IMG/VR virus record: IMGVR_UViG_3300028800_000086
Location: 5,873-69,872 of that record
Strand: one strand, 5' to 3'
DNA from: a virus
Length of the DNA stretch: 64,000 nucleotides
Below the pieces are notes generated by a model. It saw only the letters and a list, made by a program, of their open reading frames with translations, had not been told where the DNA came from and searched no databases. Below are positions 15,792 through 49,978 of the stretch, one piece after another (position 1 is the first letter of the stretch; each line of letters opens with the position of its first letter). The translations under genes were made by a program, and so were the position numbers.

Positions 15792-16691
15792 TCAGATTTG
15801 TATGACGGCGCAGCAGCCGTCGAAGTTGTAGGTGGCGAATCCGGTATCGACATCGTAGTCGACGGTCATGCAGTTGGTTTCCTGAATGTCCAGGACCTTG
15901 ACCGGCAGGATCGTCGTCGAGCCGGTTCCGGAACCGGGAGTGACCGTGCCGCCCGTGATCGAGGAGATCGTCAGGCCGGTGGCGATCGCGTAAGTGATCG
16001 TATCGGCGGCCGGCTTGGTGAGAACGGTATAGGTGCCGTTCGCCGTGGCCAGATCGCCGCCCGTTCCGGTCAGCGCCGAAACGACGATCGCGTCGCCCGG
16101 ATCGACCGTGGTCAGCGCCGCCGTCGCCTTGAGCGTAACGATGCCTGTGCCGCTGTCGTACGACGACCCAGTCGCGTTGACCGTGTAAGCCGCCGCCGAG
16201 TAGGGCACCAGCAGCTGGTTGACGTAGTCCCAGCTGACGCTCGAACCGATCGGATCACCGATCAGATCAATCAACGCCGGATCGCACTTGACCGCGATGC
16301 GAGCGCGCGAGCCAAGCGCGTAACTCATCACGGTGTTTCCGGAACCGGCGAGCGGCACCGGCGATTGCGGCGACGTGACCATGTTGTAGGCCTGGTCGAA
16401 CACCGAGAAGCCGGCGAGCGCCTTCGACCCGGTGGGTCCTGTGGCGCGGCCGACGATCACGCCGAGCGTCGGGTTGGGACCGCCCGAAGCGCCAGGAATG
16501 TTCTCATAGATGCCGACACCGCCCCACATCGGAAGCGTTTCGGTATCGTCGAGCAGTCCCTGGCGCAGAGCGTAGCGCGTCGCCGGGTCGGGATAGGCAG
16601 TGCCCTGCCGAAGGCCGCGCGACTGCGTGTTGAAAAGTCCGTCGTTGCCAACGGTGACGACGAACGGATTGAAAGCGATTGACGCGGTCAT
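15792..16691 (-). CDS. Capsid decoration/cement protein with inserted beta module
   Basis: Between protease/scaffold and capsid; PMWGGVGI motif; insert duplicated in tail fibre. Confidence 0.7.
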   Translation of the reverse strand: MTASIAFNPFVVTVGNDGLFNTQSRGLRQGTAYPDPATRYALRQGLLDDTETLPMWGGVGIYENIPGASGGPNPTLGVIVGRATGPTGSKALAGFSVFDQAYNMVTSPQSPVPLAGSGNTVMSYALGSRARIAVKCDPALIDLIGDPIGSSVSWDYVNQLLVPYSAAAYTVNATGSSYDSGTGIVTLKATAALTTVDPGDAIVVSALTGTGGDLATANGTYTVLTKPAADTITYAIATGLTISSITGGTVTPGSGTGSTTILPVKVLDIQETNCMTVDYDVDTGFATYNFDGCCAVIQI

Positions 16692-18745
16692 TAGCGGTCA
16701 CCCCTGTTGCTGCGGTTGTCGGTCAGGAACTTCGTCGCCGCCTGCTTGACGGGACCGGCGAAGCTGTCCATCCAGGCCGAAGGCCGGCCGATGAACTCGT
16801 TGCGGATATGACCTGAGTCCATCCGGATCGTGCGCATGCGAAGTTCGCCCGGCTTGGTCGTGGCCGGGGAACGCGCCGTTGCTTCGGCTTCGTTCATGAT
16901 CTGCTCCTCCACGGTCGCGAAGACCGCGTCGTTGGCGGCGACCACGGACAGGTCCTTGTCCTTCCAGGTCGTGCTGTATTGCTTCAGGTCGTTGATGAAG
17001 TGCCGGCGATAAGCCAGCAGGCTTTCGCCCTGGAGCGGAGCGCGAGCGCGCGAGCCGAGCGCCGAATAGACCGAGTCAGCGCGCGACTGAACCTTGCCGA
17101 ACGCGTTGATGTCGGCGTCGGTCAGCGGGCGCGAAGCGGTTTCGAAGGCTTCGAGCTTCGCCTTCAACGCATTGAAGGCGTCGATCGACACACTGTCGGC
17201 CCGGCTATCAGCCTTCTTGTCCTTCTCGTCTTTGTCGGCATCCTTCTTCGCGTCGCTACCGGGCTGCGAACTGGTGGTGACGTTTCCGTCCTTTTTCGCG
17301 TCCTTCTTCTTCATGAAGTCGGGCATCTCGCCGTCCGCCTTCTTGTCCTTGTCCGGATCGTCGGCGTCCTTCTTGCCCTTGTCGGCCGCGGCCTTCATCT
17401 CCGCTTCCTCCTCGGCTTCGGCGTCCTTGCGCTTGTCCTTGGCGGATTTCTCGGCTTCCGACTTCTCTTTGCCGGCTTCCTCCTCATCCTTCGCCAGTTC
17501 CTTCTCCTCGGCATCGTGCCGGGAAATGTAAGTGGCCATCGCCTCGCCGTCCGCGCGACGCGAGAAAGCGAACGACGCGACGCGAGCGCTTGCGTCGGAT
17601 CGCGTATTGCGCCGCTCGATGCTGTCCTGTCGAGCGGAAATGCTCTTCAGTTCCAGACCGAGCGCCTGGATGCCGGCCAGGATGGCCGACGTGTCCAGAA
17701 GCTCATTCTTGTTTTCGACCTTGTCGGCCATAGCTTCGTCTCCTCTGACTGTTGATACACCGATCGGTTCGCCGTCTTTGTCCCAAACGCCTTGCCAGCA
17801 GACGGCGAGATGGTCTAGCAGGCTAGGCTTACCCTCAATGAAGAAACGCTTTCCGTCCTTGAGCGTGCCCGAAGCGTTCACTTCAGGATCGTTCCAGACT
17901 ACCGATGGACTTGTCGATAACTGGTTTTCCGTCATCATCTGCGCGGCCGGCTTATCGAGGATGCGGGCGATCGCCCACACATCGCCTTCCGTCTCGCTGG
18001 TCATCTCGACCCACGCGAACATTAACGCGCCAATGACTCGTTTCTTGAATTCGGTCGTCGTCAGCATCTCGCCTTTAGGATGATCTAGGATCACCGGAAC
18101 GCCCGCGCACCGTTGGCAGAATTCGTCGTTCAGATAGATAGACGGATCACGCCAAACGACTTCTTCCTCTTGGATGACCTTTCCGGCCGCGTCGATCTTC
18201 TCGCTGCGAACGGCGCGCCCGGTCCCGGTCACGCGCATCTTAAACAACGTCAAATTCTCGTACTGCTGGGGAGACACTAGCTCCCCTGCAGCTATGGCCT
18301 TAGCGATGCCTAATTCGTCCATCGATAGCCGCGCTAAGGCGACGGCGCAGCCCGGGTGCAACGGTTGCGGCGGATCGGTAGGAGGAGCCCAAGCGAACGC
18401 CGTATGCTCCGGAGCGCCTTCCGGACCAAGCTCCGGCACAAATTCCTCCACGTCTCGAACGATGAACGTCGAGAAGTCAACGCCAGTTGGCGCCACGTCA
18501 CCCGGGGGAGATTGGGGCGTGGCGCCAACACGACGGGTCCAGGGTGTGAGTGAACCCGCCGCAAACTTCTTTCCGGCTTCTTCGACGGTTTCGCGGATAG
18601 CAGCATCCATGGCGCTTTCGTCGCCGTCGATCCTGCCGCCCGGAAAACACCAAGCTCCAGGCGCGTCGCCGCCCGGGCCGCGTTTCAAAAAAAGAACATT
18701 GTTCTTTTTTGAAATGGCGAGGATGCCTGCGGCGCGAATAATCAT
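16691..18745 (-). CDS. Nudix hydrolase - DUF2213 prohead protease - scaffold fusion
   Basis: Nudix box GRIDGDESAMDAAIRETVEEAG; PVILDHP, LSTSPSV, LDHLAVC..GVWD protease motifs; K/D/E-rich scaffold region. Confidence 0.8.
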   Translation of the reverse strand: MIIRAAGILAISKKNNVLFLKRGPGGDAPGAWCFPGGRIDGDESAMDAAIRETVEEAGKKFAAGSLTPWTRRVGATPQSPPGDVAPTGVDFSTFIVRDVEEFVPELGPEGAPEHTAFAWAPPTDPPQPLHPGCAVALARLSMDELGIAKAIAAGELVSPQQYENLTLFKMRVTGTGRAVRSEKIDAAGKVIQEEEVVWRDPSIYLNDEFCQRCAGVPVILDHPKGEMLTTTEFKKRVIGALMFAWVEMTSETEGDVWAIARILDKPAAQMMTENQLSTSPSVVWNDPEVNASGTLKDGKRFFIEGKPSLLDHLAVCWQGVWDKDGEPIGVSTVRGDEAMADKVENKNELLDTSAILAGIQALGLELKSISARQDSIERRNTRSDASARVASFAFSRRADGEAMATYISRHDAEEKELAKDEEEAGKEKSEAEKSAKDKRKDAEAEEEAEMKAAADKGKKDADDPDKDKKADGEMPDFMKKKDAKKDGNVTTSSQPGSDAKKDADKDEKDKKADSRADSVSIDAFNALKAKLEAFETASRPLTDADINAFGKVQSRADSVYSALGSRARAPLQGESLLAYRRHFINDLKQYSTTWKDKDLSVVAANDAVFATVEEQIMNEAEATARSPATTKPGELRMRTIRMDSGHIRNEFIGRPSAWMDSFAGPVKQAATKFLTDNRSNRGDR

Positions 18746-33722: not shown

Positions 33723-34349
33723 CTAAGTGATTGAGACAATTTCGACGTCATCAGATTTCGTAGGCACAATCATCAGCCGCCCCAACATCTTCCCTAAAAC
33801 GACATCGATCCGCTCGCGATCGGAGAATTGCACCCGGCCTTCGCGCCCGGCGAATAGTCCGCTCGATATTCGAACCTTTGCGCCGACCGGGACGAAGCGC
33901 GCTAACGCGTCATCAACCTCCTCGGCGTCTACAATTCCGTCTCGGCTACAACGCCCCAGAAGGATCGCCATAACCTCATCACTTATCCGCGTCGGGCATT
34001 CCGGGCCGGTAGAAAGAAGTCGCTGAACGCCCGGCTGATCATTGATGTATCGCCAGGGCGTTTCCTCCACGTCGAAGTTCACGAAGATATAGCCGCAGAT
34101 ATACTGACGCTCGTGTATCACTTTTCGGCCGCGCTGTATTCGCGTAACTCGGTATCGAGGATTGAATGGCTGGATGCCGCGAAGGCGTCCTAGATAGGCT
34201 TCCGCAGTCAACTCGGCGCGAGGCTCCGTTGTAGCGACGTACCAACGTGTAGCTATGATCGTTCTCCCCGAACGGTCCCCGCGTACCGCTGGTTTCCCGC
34301 GGCATGCCGAGAGAGTTTGCCTAGAGTTCGATGCCCGAATCAAGCGCAA
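33723..34349 (-). CDS. NusG/RfaH-family transcription antiterminator
   Basis: NGN motifs WYVATT, GYIFVNF, INDQPGV; KOW GAKVRISSGLFAGREG; start uncertain. Confidence 0.85.
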   Translation of the reverse strand: MRLIRASNSRQTLSACRGKPAVRGDRSGRTIIATRWYVATTEPRAELTAEAYLGRLRGIQPFNPRYRVTRIQRGRKVIHERQYICGYIFVNFDVEETPWRYINDQPGVQRLLSTGPECPTRISDEVMAILLGRCSRDGIVDAEEVDDALARFVPVGAKVRISSGLFAGREGRVQFSDRERIDVVLGKMLGRLMIVPTKSDDVEIVSIT

Positions 34350-40813: not shown

Positions 40814-40852
40814 CCGCCCGATCGGCTTAGACCGGCCACGCGGAAACCGACA

Positions 40853-40884
40853 AAGGGGCGGCCTTCGGGTCGCCCTTTTTTGTT
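40853..40884 (+). terminator. Intrinsic terminator
   Basis: GGGCGGCC-TTCG-GGTCGCCC then T6. Confidence 0.9.
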
Positions 40885-41590: not shown

Positions 41591-41619
41591 GGGCGGCCTT
41601 CGGGCCGCCTTTTTTATTT
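41591..41619 (+). terminator. Intrinsic terminator
   Basis: GGCGGCC-TTCG-GGCCGCC then T6. Confidence 0.9.
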
Positions 41620-41674: not shown

Positions 41675-41703
41675 TTGCCTAGCTGCCCGAAATCCCCGAT
41701 AAT
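41675..41703 (+). promoter_or_regulatory. Putative early sigma70-type promoter
   Basis: TTGCCT-N17-GATAAT. Confidence 0.6.
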
Positions 41704-41739
41704 CGACGGGCGCAACTGCCCTTAGAAAGGATAACCGCT

Positions 41740-42666
41740 ATGAACACGAACGATCTCAACGACGATCTCTCCGACCTGCTGGGCCTTCCCGCGGGCACCG
41801 CGAAGCCGCTTCCGATCGATCCGGGCTTCGCCCGCATCCGCGACGCGGTTCCCGACTTCACCGAGACGTGCCCGAAGTGCCGCGGTCGCGGTCGCTTCAT
41901 TTCCTACGCCGGGCGCGACTGCGGTTCTTGCTTCGGCTGCAAGGGGAAGGGCAAGCTGACGTTCCGGACCGCTCCCGAAGCCCGGGCGAAGGCGAAGGCC
42001 GCGCGCGACGCGCTCCCGGGCAAGCGCTGGGCAGCGTGGACGGAAGCCAACCCTATCGAGGCAGCGTGGCTCGCGGCGAAGATCGCGGATAGCCGGGTGC
42101 CGGCCGGCTATCGCGAATTCCTGACGAAGATGCGCAGCGCCGTCGAGGCGTACGGCGATCTCACGCCGGGCCAGCTAGAAGCCGTCCGCAAGGGCGTGGC
42201 CCGGGACGCGTCCTATGCCGAGACGAAGGCGCAGGCGGCCACCGTATCCAATCCCCGGTCCCAGGAAGTCGACGCGTCGAAGATCGTCGAGGCGATCGCG
42301 AAGGGCAAGGCGTCCGGTCTGAAGTGGGTGTGCCTTCGCTTCGTCGGCGCGGTCATCAGCGAGGCGAAGCGCCATCCCGGAACGCTCTACGTCAAGGGCG
42401 ACGGCGTCTATCTCGGCAAGATCGCCAACGGCGTCTTCTCACCGTCGCGCGACTGCACGCCGGAACAGCAGGCGGCGATCGTCCTGATCGCTTCCGATCC
42501 GGCCGCGGCGGCGAAGGTCTACGGCATGGCGACGAATTCCTGCTGCGTGTGCGGTCGGGAGCTTACCAACGCAGAGAGCGTCACGACCGGCATCGGGCCG
42601 ATCTGCTCCGGTCGTCTCGGCTTCACGCCGGGCGGCATCAAGGTCTTCCCCGCGATTGAAGGATAA
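41740..42666 (+). CDS. Zinc-finger protein (CxxCxGxG repeats + DUF6011-like C-terminus)
   Basis: CPKCRGRG, CFGCKGKG, CCVCGRELT..ES...GIGPIC. Confidence 0.7.
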   Translation: MNTNDLNDDLSDLLGLPAGTAKPLPIDPGFARIRDAVPDFTETCPKCRGRGRFISYAGRDCGSCFGCKGKGKLTFRTAPEARAKAKAARDALPGKRWAAWTEANPIEAAWLAAKIADSRVPAGYREFLTKMRSAVEAYGDLTPGQLEAVRKGVARDASYAETKAQAATVSNPRSQEVDASKIVEAIAKGKASGLKWVCLRFVGAVISEAKRHPGTLYVKGDGVYLGKIANGVFSPSRDCTPEQQAAIVLIASDPAAAAKVYGMATNSCCVCGRELTNAESVTTGIGPICSGRLGFTPGGIKVFPAIEG

Positions 42667-42807
42667 CGACCGTGAACACAATCTGGAACGCGCTTTCTCA
42701 TATCGCTCGCGAAAGCGTCCGATACACCCACTTCCAAATCATCCCCGACGTTCGGCTTGATCCCTTCGGACGGCATTGGACGGTAGACCGCGGAGCGTTC
42801 CGCAAAT

Positions 42808-42865
42808 AGCCGAAACGCGCTTCGGCGCGTCTGCCGGATCACCGGCACTGATGAGGCTTGTGGTC
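42808..42865 (+). ncRNA. Type II hammerhead ribozyme
   Basis: AGCC-GAAA-CGCGC(TTCG)GCGCG-TC-TGCCGG(ATCA)CCGGCA-CTGATGA-GGCT: full core, three perfect stems, GUC cleavage triplet. Confidence 0.93.
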
Positions 42866-42898
42866 CGTTTCGGACCGACAATAGAAAGGATAACGACT

Positions 42899-43210
42899 AT
42901 GAACAACGATCGACGCAAGCGTATCGACGCTATCTTGGAAGACTTGGCCAAGTTGACGGCGGCCATCGACGCGCTGCCTGATTCCGGCGACATTTCGTCC
43001 GCCATCGAGGAGATCGCGGGCGAGGAACGCGAATACTACGACAACATGCACGAGAACCTGCAGGGCGGCGAGCGCGGCGAGATCGCGGAGCAGGCCGCGT
43101 CAAACCTGGAAGAAGCGCAAGGCGAGATGGATGAACTAGGGGTTTCGGAACTTTCCGACAAGTTGGCGGAAATCGTTGCGAAGCTCGAAGCCGCGCGCGA
43201 TGGAGGGTGA
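42899..43210 (+). CDS. Acidic helical hypothetical protein
   Basis: MNNDRRKRI...EEREYYDNMHENLQGGERGE; strong RBS. Confidence 0.7.
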   Translation: MNNDRRKRIDAILEDLAKLTAAIDALPDSGDISSAIEEIAGEEREYYDNMHENLQGGERGEIAEQAASNLEEAQGEMDELGVSELSDKLAEIVAKLEAARDGG

Positions 43211-43211
43211 G

Positions 43212-43397
43212 ATGACCGAGCACGAAAAGCTAATGTTGAGGCGGCATCTCTACGCCGCCGCGCGGTACTACGCCGCGACGATCGCGACGCTGCAGGACGC
43301 GAACACGATGAGCGGTAACGTCCCGCAAGCCCTGATCGAAAATCTGCGGGCTTCGCGTATCGATGCCCTCGCGATCGCGGAGAGGCTCAATGGTTAA
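43212..43397 (+). CDS. Hypothetical protein
   Basis: GGAGG RBS; fills gap. Confidence 0.5.
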   Translation: MTEHEKLMLRRHLYAAARYYAATIATLQDANTMSGNVPQALIENLRASRIDALAIAERLNG

Positions 43398-44112
43398 GGT
43401 CGCGAAGAAACTGATGAGCCGGCCGACCGTCGTCAAGGCGGTCGCGGCCTTCTTAGGAACGACGGTTAAGACGATCGAAGCGACGCAGGCCGCCGCCGTT
43501 CCCGAAGAACCGATAATTGTTGTCGACGGTATCGACATCACCATCCCGAAGTTCCTTCGCCGCACCACGCGACTAACGCCTGTGCAGATTAAGTACCTAA
43601 CGTCTAAGAACATTCCATGGGCACCGTTCAAGAAGAAAGGAGAAACCGACATGGCTAAGATCAACACCGTAATCGTTAACCGCGAAGCTCCCGTCGAAGT
43701 CAATATGCGCGACGCGAGGGACAACACTAAGCAGGTTTGCTTCGCCAACATGGACGAATTCGAAGCCTGGTACAACCCGAAGCATCATCACTTCATCGGC
43801 GGCCGAACCAGCGAGAAGTATAACCTGATCGGCATCGACGTGAAGTCGTTCGACGACGCCACTTCGAAGAAGCCTGCAATATCCCCCGCGAAGCCGGGTG
43901 ATGAGAAGCCCGCGAAGCCGAGCAACAACGCGCGGGGCGGCAAGGCGACCGTTTGGGCGGACGGAAAGGAACACGGATCAGTTCCCGTCGCCTTCACGAC
44001 GCTTCGTCTTCCGATGAACAAGATGAAGAAGTTTCGTAGCGCGCTCAAGGCCGCTCGCAAGCTCGACTTCATCGACGGTAAGCGCACCGTCAAGTTCGAG
44101 TATCGGCCGTAA
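43390..44112 (+). CDS. Hypothetical protein with internal in-frame start at 43651
   Basis: AGAAAGGAG before ATG 43651; C-terminus paralogous to 40454-40813. Confidence 0.6.
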   Translation: MVKVAKKLMSRPTVVKAVAAFLGTTVKTIEATQAAAVPEEPIIVVDGIDITIPKFLRRTTRLTPVQIKYLTSKNIPWAPFKKKGETDMAKINTVIVNREAPVEVNMRDARDNTKQVCFANMDEFEAWYNPKHHHFIGGRTSEKYNLIGIDVKSFDDATSKKPAISPAKPGDEKPAKPSNNARGGKATVWADGKEHGSVPVAFTTLRLPMNKMKKFRSALKAARKLDFIDGKRTVKFEYRP

Positions 44113-48338: not shown

Positions 48339-48478
48339 ATGATGGGTGGCGTAGGGTTCGGTTACTTCAGGGAGCGAAAGGCCGCGGGTTCAAATCCCGT
48401 CGTCCCGGGCAATCCGGGACGTAGCGCAGTCCGGTAGCGCGTTCGCAGCAAGTCCGGTCCCGATTTTTCCCCCATCAT
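48339..48478 (+). ncRNA. yrlA: YrlA-type Y RNA with circularly permuted tRNA-like domain
   Basis: ATGATGGG/CCCATCAT closing stem; T arm GCGGG-TTCAAAT-CCCGT, loop-closed acceptor stem, D arm GCGC-AGTCCGGTA-GCGC; next to Ro60. Confidence 0.88.
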
Positions 48479-48529: not shown

Positions 48530-49873
48530 ATGATCATGGCTCGTGTTAATCGAAAGAACTCAATCACTGCCGAGACGGCGGAAGGCGGCCCGGCGTTCGC
48601 TCATATGAAGCCGCTCGCCGCGCTGCGGCGTTCGGTCATGTCGTGCTTCCTGTGGGAAGACGAATTCTATGAGGACGGCATATCGATCGCGGAACGCATA
48701 GACTCGCTCGCGGAGAAGGTTGCGCCGGCCGATCTAGCCGCGCTCGCGATCCAGGCCCGCAACCAGTTCAACTTGCGGCACGTTCCCCTGTTATTGCTAG
48801 TTGTCCTAGCAAGAACGGGAAGCGGCACGCCGATCCTCAGCAATACGATGCCGCACGTCCTCAAGCGTGTCGACGATATGACGGAACTTCTCGCCTTGTA
48901 TTGGAAGGCGAACCCGCGCACCGCCAAGCAGGCGGCGGCGAAGTCCGGGCGCGGCCTTTCGGCCCAGATGAAGAAGGGGTTGGCCGCGAGCTTCGCCAAC
49001 TTCAATGAATATCACTTCGCGAAGTACGATCGCGAAGACGCGGTCAAGCTTCGTGATGTTCTTTTCCTCGCGCATCCCGATCCGGGCGGCGCGCGTCTCG
49101 ACTTGTTCAAGAAGATCGCGACGCGTACGCTGGAAACTCCGGATACCTGGGAAGTCGGACTGTCCGCGGGCGGCGACAAGAAGGCGACGTTTGAAAGGTT
49201 GCTACGCGAAGGTAAGCTAGGATACCTCGCGCTGCTGCGGAACCTCCGCAACATGGCTACGGCCGGCTGCGACGACGGTCTAGTCCGGGCCGCGATCGTT
49301 GCCCGCAAAGGCGGCGCGGAGCGCGTCTTGCCGTTCCGCTACGTCGCGGCGGCCCGCGCGGCTCCGCAATACGAACGCGAGCTAGATACGGCGCTCATGA
49401 TGGCGATACGGGATATGCCGGGAATGTCCGGGACGACCGTGGGCCTGATCGACGTTTCCGGCTCGATGGGCGATCCGCTTTCCGCGAAGTCGGATATGCG
49501 CCGTGTCGACGCGGCGGCGGCGCTCGGATCGATGATCCCGGGCGACGTTCGTCTGTTCACGTTCAGCGACAAACTCGTCGAAGTTCCGCCGCGTAAGGGA
49601 ATGGCGGGCGTCGATGCGATTATAAATTCGCAGCCGCATCGGTCCACCTATCTCGGTCGCGCGCTCGCGGAGATCGACGCTAAGGTCAATTACGATCGGA
49701 TCATCGTAGTGACCGACGAACAGACGGCCGACAAGGTCAAGGAGCCGAAGGGCCGCGGCTACATGATCAACGTCGCCTCGAACAAGAACGGCGTCGGTTA
49801 CGGCGGACGCTGGACGCAAATCGACGGCTTCTCCGAAGCGATCTTCAACTTTATCCGGGAGATCGAACGCTAA
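48530..49873 (+). CDS. rsr: Ro60/Rsr TROVE + vWA domain RNA-binding protein
   Basis: EDEFYE, LRDVLFLAHP, TWE..LS, YLALLRNLRN, RVLPFRY TROVE motifs; MIDAS DVSGSM and VVTDEQ. Confidence 0.93.
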   Translation: MIMARVNRKNSITAETAEGGPAFAHMKPLAALRRSVMSCFLWEDEFYEDGISIAERIDSLAEKVAPADLAALAIQARNQFNLRHVPLLLLVVLARTGSGTPILSNTMPHVLKRVDDMTELLALYWKANPRTAKQAAAKSGRGLSAQMKKGLAASFANFNEYHFAKYDREDAVKLRDVLFLAHPDPGGARLDLFKKIATRTLETPDTWEVGLSAGGDKKATFERLLREGKLGYLALLRNLRNMATAGCDDGLVRAAIVARKGGAERVLPFRYVAAARAAPQYERELDTALMMAIRDMPGMSGTTVGLIDVSGSMGDPLSAKSDMRRVDAAAALGSMIPGDVRLFTFSDKLVEVPPRKGMAGVDAIINSQPHRSTYLGRALAEIDAKVNYDRIIVVTDEQTADKVKEPKGRGYMINVASNKNGVGYGGRWTQIDGFSEAIFNFIREIER

Positions 49874-49954: not shown

Positions 49955-49978
49955 ACCGCTTTAGAAAGGATACCAACC

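Follow-up and report, generated by a model that had tools for sequence, protein, structure and literature searches.

Structure and location of the hammerhead ribozyme

IMG/VR virus record IMGVR_UViG_3300028800_000086 is 69,872 bases in length and is rated 100% complete by CheckV. We analyzed bases 5873–69872 of this record (the window; 64,000 nt, GC content 58.7%), and positions below refer to the window unless another record is named. A type II hammerhead ribozyme motif is located at 42808–42858 on the plus strand, after a gene for a 308-amino acid protein and a putative open reading frame (ORF) of 45 amino acids, and before a gene for a 103-amino acid protein (Table 1). Structural genes, including those for Baseplate_J-like and major-capsid-like proteins, occupy the minus strand. 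The plus strand from ~35.5 kb on carries replication and nucleotide-metabolism genes, among them a primase, a DUF5906 primase/helicase-like protein, ThyX, an RNase_T-type exonuclease, DNA polymerase III alpha, an SNF2 helicase, and a TROVE (Ro60-like) protein (48530–49873). The hammerhead is on the coding strand within this co-directional block, as an earlier note on this DNA had supposed in placing it among early genes. An intergenic site on the coding strand of a phage genome is the typical setting of the type II class.

The earlier note had described an intact type II hammerhead, and every element that it listed is in place. Stems I, II, and III consist of six, four, and six pairs, respectively, all perfect, and no core position is substituted. 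Loops cap stems I and III, and stem II is left open, giving the type II topology. The sequence of stem I is identical to the Rfam type II consensus (ugCCgg/ccGGca). The three pairs adjacent to the core are all Watson-Crick, namely U42832–A42847 (U1.1–A2.1), G42855–C42811 (G10.1–C11.1), and A42815–U42830 (A15.1–U16.1); Perreault et al. (2011; PMC3088659) give a mispair at such a position as a ground for rejecting a candidate. The cleavage triplet, GUC at 42829–42831, satisfies the N-U-H rule (H being any base except G) 5′ of stem I. Hammerhead numbering would put the cut after 42831, where the earlier note had placed it. We estimate a probability of roughly three in four that 42808–42858 is a catalytically competent type II hammerhead, belonging to the large class with stem I UGCCGG/CCGGCA found in phages and prophages and acting by the operon-cleavage mechanism proposed below.

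Table 1. Features of the hammerhead and its surroundings in the window.
Position	Strand	Feature	Basis or remark
41591–41610	+	Intrinsic-terminator-like hairpin and T-run; ends the preceding unit	8 pairs, 7 of them G-C, then TTTTTTATTTC
41675–41703	+	Candidate sigma-70-like promoter match, TTGCCT-17-GATAAT	9 of 12 hexamer positions; consensus match only
41740–42666	+	First gene of the unit, 308 amino acids	DUF6011 C-terminus, phrog_4046; function unknown
42672–42809	+	Putative ORF, 45 amino acids, GTG start	Stop codon TAG (42807–42809) overlaps the first two hammerhead bases
42808–42811	+	Stem II 3′ strand, AGCC (11.4–11.1)	Sequence, Rfam alignment, descriptor
42812–42814	+	Core G12 A13 A14	Sequence, Rfam alignment
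42815–42830	+	Stem III hairpin, A15.1 to U16.1, 6 pairs, TTCG loop: A15.1 (42815), CGCGC (42816–42820), TTCG (42821–42824), GCGCG (42825–42829), U16.1 (42830)	Sequence, Rfam, minimum free energy (MFE) fold
42831..42832	+	Predicted cleavage site, C17 (42831) / U1.1 (42832)	Hammerhead numbering
42832–42847	+	Stem I hairpin, 6 pairs, 4-nt loop: TGCCGG (42832–42837), ATCA (42838–42841), CCGGCA (42842–42847)	Sequence, Rfam, MFE fold
42848–42854	+	Core C3–A9, CUGAUGA	Sequence, Rfam alignment
42855–42858	+	Stem II 5′ strand, GGCT (10.1–10.4)	Sequence, descriptor
42860–42865	+	Possible pseudoknot strand, GTGGTC	Sequence complementarity to GATCAC (42837–42842)
42862–42876	+	Downstream hairpin, GGTCCG (42862–42867)-TTT-CGGACC (42871–42876)	No T-run follows
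42886–42897	+	Shine-Dalgarno (SD) sequence and spacer, AAGGATAACGAC; SD-like AAGGA at 42886–42890	Recurrent phage cassette
42899–43210	+	Downstream gene, 103 amino acids, ATG 42899	phrog_4068; function unknown; further plus-strand ORFs follow

Rfam match and predicted fold

The Rfam family RF02276 (Hammerhead_II) matches 42808–42862 over its full length (model positions 1–66 of 66) with a score of 31.6 bits. This corresponds to an E-value of 5.7e-5 when 201 nt are searched and of 4.8e-6 when this single family is searched against the whole 69.9-kb record; with the whole 64-kb window compared to all 4227 Rfam families, the hammerhead has an E-value of 0.018. Rfam thus bears out the type II assignment of the earlier note in the length and E-value of the match, but the score lies under the gathering score of the family (37 bits). 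The window lacks the consensus AGCC-type tail pseudoknot, which accounts for the shortfall of 5.4 bits, and a default Rfam scan of the window returns nothing because of it. Sub-gathering scores are typical of this hammerhead class. Among 50 virus records known to carry it, 47 were detected at E≤0.01, with the best match above 37 bits in 33 and below it in 17. The members with a short loop I, described below, score between 24.9 and 40.2 bits.

We also searched both strands with a relaxed descriptor of our own (at least four, two, and four pairs in stems I, II, and III, respectively, plus the core). It matched once in the window and once in total over 300 dinucleotide shuffles. The genome holds a single hammerhead copy by both RF02276 and the descriptor, and no other self-cleaving ribozyme class or further hammerhead was found by Rfam in the window at E≤1.

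A score under the gathering threshold would be compatible with a chance match to the hammerhead consensus in GC-rich DNA, as would the occurrence of RF02276 matches in 11 of 14 control genomes at E≤10. However, none of the control genomes has a match at E≤0.01, as against 4.8e-6 for this genome. The actual stems far exceed the minimum of the descriptor that found one match in 300 shuffles, and the site precisely fills an intergenic gap on the coding strand. We regard a chance match as extremely improbable.

The MFE fold of the 86-nt stretch 42800–42885 combines the three-way junction of the hammerhead with the downstream hairpin, at –35.4 kcal/mol (z = –2.41; 3 of 200 shuffles as stable).

Hammerhead family in viral contigs

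Stem I and the core in the form GTCTGCCGG, 3–20 nt, CCGGCACTGATGAG occur in at least 126 viral-contig stretches. With the window included, 127 distinct instances were obtained, of which 108 are type II by a strict rule, 11 are type III-like permutations, and 8 are bulged type II or truncated. Stems II and III vary in pair type across the 102 distinct type II sequences; position 15.3/16.3, for example, is GC in 54, CG in 31, AT in 11, and TA in 4. The parser demanded at least four consecutive pairs, and the percentage of pairing is therefore given by construction, leaving pair-type diversity alone as informative.

The type II instances are mostly packed tightly between genes. In 92 of the 108, the end of an upstream ORF (at least 40 codons) lies within –40 to +8 nt of the ribozyme start, most commonly at –1 or 0 (32% for random positions), and an SD sequence with a start codon follows within 80 nt in 93, mostly at 17–32 nt (33% for random positions). 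The order of stop codon, ribozyme, and ribosome-binding site (RBS) in close succession is thus seen in ~85% of instances. The window conforms: the TAG overlaps the ribozyme by 2 nt, and ATG 42899 lies 40 nt past stem II, the longer spacer housing the extra hairpin. (This spacer length was taken directly from the sequence, the automatic start-finding rule having chosen a spurious GTG.) This position between a stop codon and the RBS of the next gene is that of most relatives, and supports the intergenic setting given in the earlier note.

Two structural subclasses are distinguishable. Where loop I exceeds 7 nt (81 instances), stem II usually has two to three pairs, and pairing between loop I and the tail just past stem II averages 5.25 bp, as compared to 3.86 ± 0.10 bp with swapped tails; this pairing is the pseudoknot of Perreault et al. 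(PMC3088659). Of the 27 short-loop instances, 23 have a four-pair stem II, and loop–tail pairing in the 27 is 2.56 versus 2.62 with swapped tails. The window, with its short loop I and 4-bp stem II, is a member of this rarer subclass. A scan for loops of 4–6 nt found only 40 viral-contig stretches with this stem I, which yielded 36 parsed type II instances. The ATCA loop of the window is unique, the other three 4-nt loops all being TAGA. The short-loop subclass may already stand in the alignments of Perreault et al. (Dataset S1).

Several further features were seen among these loci, which are identified here by L numbers. In 9 of the 36 short-loop instances (e.g., L177, L186, L198–L202, and L206) the tail opens with ATCA(G), and in others this comes a few bases later. 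A tail ATCAG is complementary to core CUGAU, making an inactive alternative hairpin possible. Many of the members with ATCA(G) tails share stem III sequences and possibly form one clade. The L075 record, a 64.8-kb viral contig, has 20 Hammerhead_II matches (E≤0.01) on one strand within ~16 kb (~42.6–58.8 kb of that contig), an extreme case of single genes flanked by hammerheads. The type III-like instances (L031, L042, L044, L045, L046, L049, L050, L063, L078, L087, and L121) have the same stem I and core, with GAAAC placed after a very small closed stem II. Several of these use the GGAGG Shine-Dalgarno sequence of the next gene as the 3′ strand of stem III, and the RBS would stay paired until cleavage or unfolding.

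Loop–tail pairing and the downstream hairpin

The earlier note had proposed that GATCAC at the apex of stem I pairs with the downstream GTGGTC, in competition with a hairpin just before the RBS of the 103-amino acid gene. The complementarity amounts to six pairs, one of them G-U. The two outer pairs require opening of the closing G-C pair of stem I; AUCA/UGGU alone gives four pairs and consumes the whole 4-nt loop. The hairpin shares 42862–42865 with the pseudoknot strand, and the two structures are mutually exclusive. The calculated stability of the hairpin is –8.2 kcal/mol, or –9.9 kcal/mol with an extension to 42860–42879, as compared to –5.5 kcal/mol for the pseudoknot duplex, for which opening of the stem I closing pair costs +2.7 kcal/mol. 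The complementarity and the shared strand on which the proposed competition was based are real, but the hairpin is much the stronger structure and the short-loop subclass has no loop–tail signal. At equilibrium the hairpin is calculated to prevail over the pseudoknot.

Perreault et al. describe a pseudoknot between loop I and the tail as critical for fast cleavage, and one of at least four pairs as present in the majority of type II members, though not all (PMC3088659). As an alternative to constitutive cleavage, the ribozyme might be gated. Fast cleavage might be limited to a co-transcriptional interval in which GUGGUC (42860–42865) pairs with GAUCAC, the interval closing once the 3′ arm of the hairpin (42871–42876) captures the shared strand. 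Ribosomes ending at the TAG in stem II, or translating the 45-amino acid ORF, which includes a competitor strand (~42781–42791), could then modulate folding. The six-pair complementarity is consistent with such gating in that it begins 1 nt past stem II, as in the long-loop relatives, for which the excess of loop–tail pairing over swapped tails is real, and it is matched by none of the 107 other family tails and by 0.47% of random 12-mers from the window. The use of 42862–42865 by both structures, and the abutment or overlap of the stop codon with stem II in most family members, also agree with it, and regulated cleavage is raised as a possibility for phage hammerheads by Perreault et al. (PMC3088659). 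The energetics argue in the opposite direction, as a 4-nt loop needs the 2.7-kcal/mol opening of stem I and the duplex is weaker than the hairpin. In the short-loop subclass, which lacks a pairing signal, a single member out of 36 others attains six pairs. Compact phage intergenic regions explain the adjacency of the stop codon equally well, and the hexamer was selected after the sequence had been seen. We consider gated cleavage possible but unlikely. The fuller form of the idea, a natural kinetic switch in which a transient 6-bp pseudoknot licenses fast co-transcriptional cleavage, the hairpin then takes the strand, and terminating ribosomes set how frequently the ribozyme folds, appears to us improbable.

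Neighboring genes and transcription unit

No T-run terminator occurs between the 41591–41610 hairpin or the promoter match and the ribozyme. Promoter-like sites in the region are no more numerous than in shuffled sequence. Two strong terminator-like hairpins (40852–40879 and 41591–41610, both on the plus strand) share GGGCGGCC-TTCG-GG(T/C)CGCC followed by a T-run, and split the early region into short transcription units.

Homologues of the 308-amino acid protein were found at two viral and eight metagenome loci (38–57% identity), and those of the 103-amino acid protein at ten viral and two genome loci (33–50% identity). The latter align from residue 1, which places the start at ATG 42899 and makes the ribozyme non-coding; a longer TTG-started frame running through the ribozyme was rejected as a gene on this ground. 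At two of the loci (L002, 3399–3446, and L003, 393–440) the homologue of the 308-amino acid gene is followed by a long perfect hairpin and no hammerhead. An Rfam match of this hairpin to mir-5681 was dismissed as spurious (E = 0.51).

The 45-amino acid ORF has no family match in Pfam and PHROG scans. The exact 12-mer AAGGATAACGAC is located 1 nt before its GTG at 42672 (42659–42670), just as it is before ATG 42899, and the GC content by codon position (0.60/0.44/0.64) is weakly coding-like. These two features make the ORF plausible. The 12-mer belongs to a cassette for translation initiation that recurs in the window, in which AAGGATAAC precedes a start codon by a few bases; this has 19 matches with up to two mismatches, as compared to 4.5 ± 2.1 in shuffled sequence. 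The sites include 41727–41738, 42659–42670, 42886–42897, 49966–49977, 58829–40, and 59675–86, several of them directly preceding starts.

Elsewhere in the window, a NusG-like protein (Pfam NusG, 1e-14) is encoded at 33723–34349 (–) and a 684-amino acid protein with an N-terminal NUDIX domain at 16691–18745 (–), both amid structural genes. ARAGORN found no tRNA genes in the window.

Ro60 and RtcB

The 2′,3′-cyclic phosphate and 5′-OH ends that a hammerhead leaves are those of RtcB substrates, and the earlier note had suggested on this basis that co-occurrence with Ro60 be considered. The TROVE protein of this phage is well supported (Pfam, 2e-15; phrog_850, 5e-49). A YrlA-like element (Y RNA, tRNA mimic) was found at 48376–48444 (+), 86 nt upstream of the TROVE gene; the match is partial (31.1 bits versus a gathering score of 69; model positions 23–85 of 114; E = 5.7e-5 on 411 nt). 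A Ro60 and Y RNA arrangement is known for 22 bacteriophages, according to PMC4201824.

The ribozyme could be tied to this Ro60 and Y-RNA-like gene, its cleaved ends feeding RNA quality control or repair of the Ro60/RtcB type. The end chemistry, the presence of TROVE in the same phage, and the YrlA-like element upstream of it on the same strand would agree with such a tie. Across virus records, however, the two show no general coupling. TROVE was found in none of 50 hammerhead-bearing records, nor in any of the 24 among these that are at least 90% complete; the 50 were drawn, for the most part as the longer contigs, from the records in which the at least 126 loci occur. Conversely, 1 of the 20 TROVE-bearing viral records searched (21 loci) has a type II hammerhead at E≤0.01. 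This one case is in keeping with a tie, but its hammerhead lies ~86 kb from TROVE, and the value is a frequency and not an enrichment. The search was sensitive enough to detect 47 of 50 known positives. In the present phage, the hammerhead and TROVE are 5.7 kb apart with ~10 ORFs between them, and a Pfam scan of 62 ORFs revealed no RtcB domain. Beyond a possible weak enrichment, there is no general coupling of hammerheads and TROVE, and neither the Ro60 nor the RtcB connection of the earlier note was supported as a general rule; we consider a tie in this phage very improbable.

Proposed function

The results above establish the motif, where it lies, and the family to which it belongs. By analogy with tested relatives, we infer cleavage in vivo and its consequences as follows. 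The ribozyme would be transcribed within the mRNA of a plus-strand operon, probably starting near 41710, past the 41591–41610 terminator. It would fold locally and then cleave itself between C42831 and U42832, and the halves, being joined by the 4-bp stem II alone, would separate. The upstream RNA, with the 41740–42666 gene and the 45-amino acid ORF, would terminate at the stem III hairpin and carry a 2′,3′-cyclic phosphate. The downstream RNA, with 42899–43210 and later cistrons, would begin with a 5′-OH in full pairing within the stem I hairpin, and the second hairpin and then an exposed RBS would come next. Hairpins at 3′ ends impede exonucleases, and RNase E and RNase J enter poorly at 5′-terminal hairpins and 5′-OH ends. 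As a net result, the stability and translation of the downstream cistrons would be uncoupled from those of the upstream cistrons, in the manner of a RiboJ insulator.

The ribozyme probably serves to cut its own operon mRNA upstream of gene 42899. Perreault et al. observed cleavage by tandem prophage hammerheads within transcripts of ~2 kb made in vitro, and proposed that such ribozymes process long phage transcripts (PMC3088659). The processing of a polycistron that we suggest here would be consistent with that proposal.

A number of results weigh against this reading, among them the sub-gathering Rfam score of 31.6 bits. When folded in longer contexts (110–401 nt, with at least 32 nt of upstream sequence), competitor folds are favored by 1.2–2.9 kcal/mol and the probability of stem II is at most 0.04; the competitor MFE fold swaps stems II and III for pairing with ~42777–42803. 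The same calculation on 107 family members gave a median penalty of 2.9 kcal/mol, with 79 of the 107 at least as bad as the window. Most of the family thus misfolds in longer contexts as the window does, and we ascribe this to the energy model and do not count it as evidence against the ribozyme. Loop–tail pairing in the 36 short-loop instances averages 2.89, versus 2.97 ± 0.10 with swapped tails, and in a subclass without this pseudoknot, cleavage at cellular Mg2+ may be slow. Comparison with relatives offers little help. A blastn search of 50,697 phage records found only ~100 nt at 74–75% identity, and no close relative was found in viral, metagenome, or genome collections; covariation is seen across the wider family alone. 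The 308- and 103-amino acid families were never adjacent at 20 viral and metagenome loci, and none of the 20 distant-homologue loci scanned (L002–L013 and L162–L169; the two genome loci, L170 and L171, lay outside the scan) has a hammerhead. Among 18 runs, no RNA run containing this phage was listed.

Some of these results would also suit a neutral or decaying passenger, perhaps derived from a mobile intergenic cassette, that cleaves without consequence or too slowly in vivo. The single copy in the genome, the absence from the distant-homologue loci, and the lack of a strong predicted tertiary contact are in line with this. Against it stand the unsubstituted core, the three perfect stems, and a placement that is the same as in at least 80 relatives. 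Rhizosphere metagenome runs contain DNA of this phage, and contigs of four other metagenome DNA runs covering 42300–43400 have no differing letters across the ribozyme; this identity indicates only that the same strain is present and says nothing on selection or covariation. We give the passenger explanation little credence, and retain operon cleavage as the probable role.

Relationship to known hammerheads

Type II hammerheads (RF02276; PMC3088659) are described as common in bacteria and prophages. The window shares with them the core, the topology, the stem I consensus, a short stem II, and a site between co-directional phage genes. It differs in having a loop I of 4 nt as compared to ~10 nt in the consensus, and a stem II of four pairs as compared to two to three. 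Tandem sets occur among the prophage hammerheads of Perreault et al., whereas that of the window is a single copy. Three type II hammerheads of Desulfovibrio vulgaris, adjacent to hypothetical and phage-like genes, are reported to cleave in vitro and, by cyPhyRNA-seq, in vivo (PMC8782182), and demonstrate that elements of this kind cleave in cells. These have a type II architecture like that of the window, are from a different organism, and are likened here by description. HHphage of haloviruses HF1 and HF2 lies 13 nt before an early-gene start codon, with a mapped transcript 5′ end at most 3 nt from the cleavage site, as given in PMC3088659. It is also likened by description, being a variant hammerhead of an archaeal virus with an unusual core and salt requirement.

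RiboJ is described as the sTRSV hammerhead plus a 23-nt hairpin upstream of a regulated 5′ untranslated region (PMC8794103). The order of parts in the window is similar: hammerhead (to 42858), hairpin (42862–42876), SD sequence (42886–42890), and ATG (42899). Cleavage by RiboJ strips the upstream RNA context, and the same would be expected in the window. RiboJ is engineered, contains a hammerhead of plant satellite RNA, and stands at the 5′ end of the transcript; the resemblance is one of possible function and not of membership. Few family members have a RiboJ-like tail hairpin, as strong tail folds (≤–11.4 kcal/mol) are found in 7 of the 27 short-loop instances, some of them inside the next ORF.

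The hammerhead of this soil phage is an ordinary new example of a class described in 2011, whose frequent occurrence in phage operons is well known. The negative result for Ro60 removes an attractive but unsupported link from consideration. If the kinetic switch were true, improbable as we take it to be, cleavage of the operon would report translation of the upstream ORF, and the group with a short loop and 4-bp stem II would constitute a mechanistically distinct type II subclass. The locus is a compact test case, having one ribozyme, a defined cut site, alternative pseudoknot and hairpin structures, and a RiboJ-like layout directly before a gene. Across the family, the packing between stop codon and RBS (~85% of the 108) and the division into two structural subclasses give a sharper form to the hypothesis that cutting between cistrons is what such ribozymes exist for.

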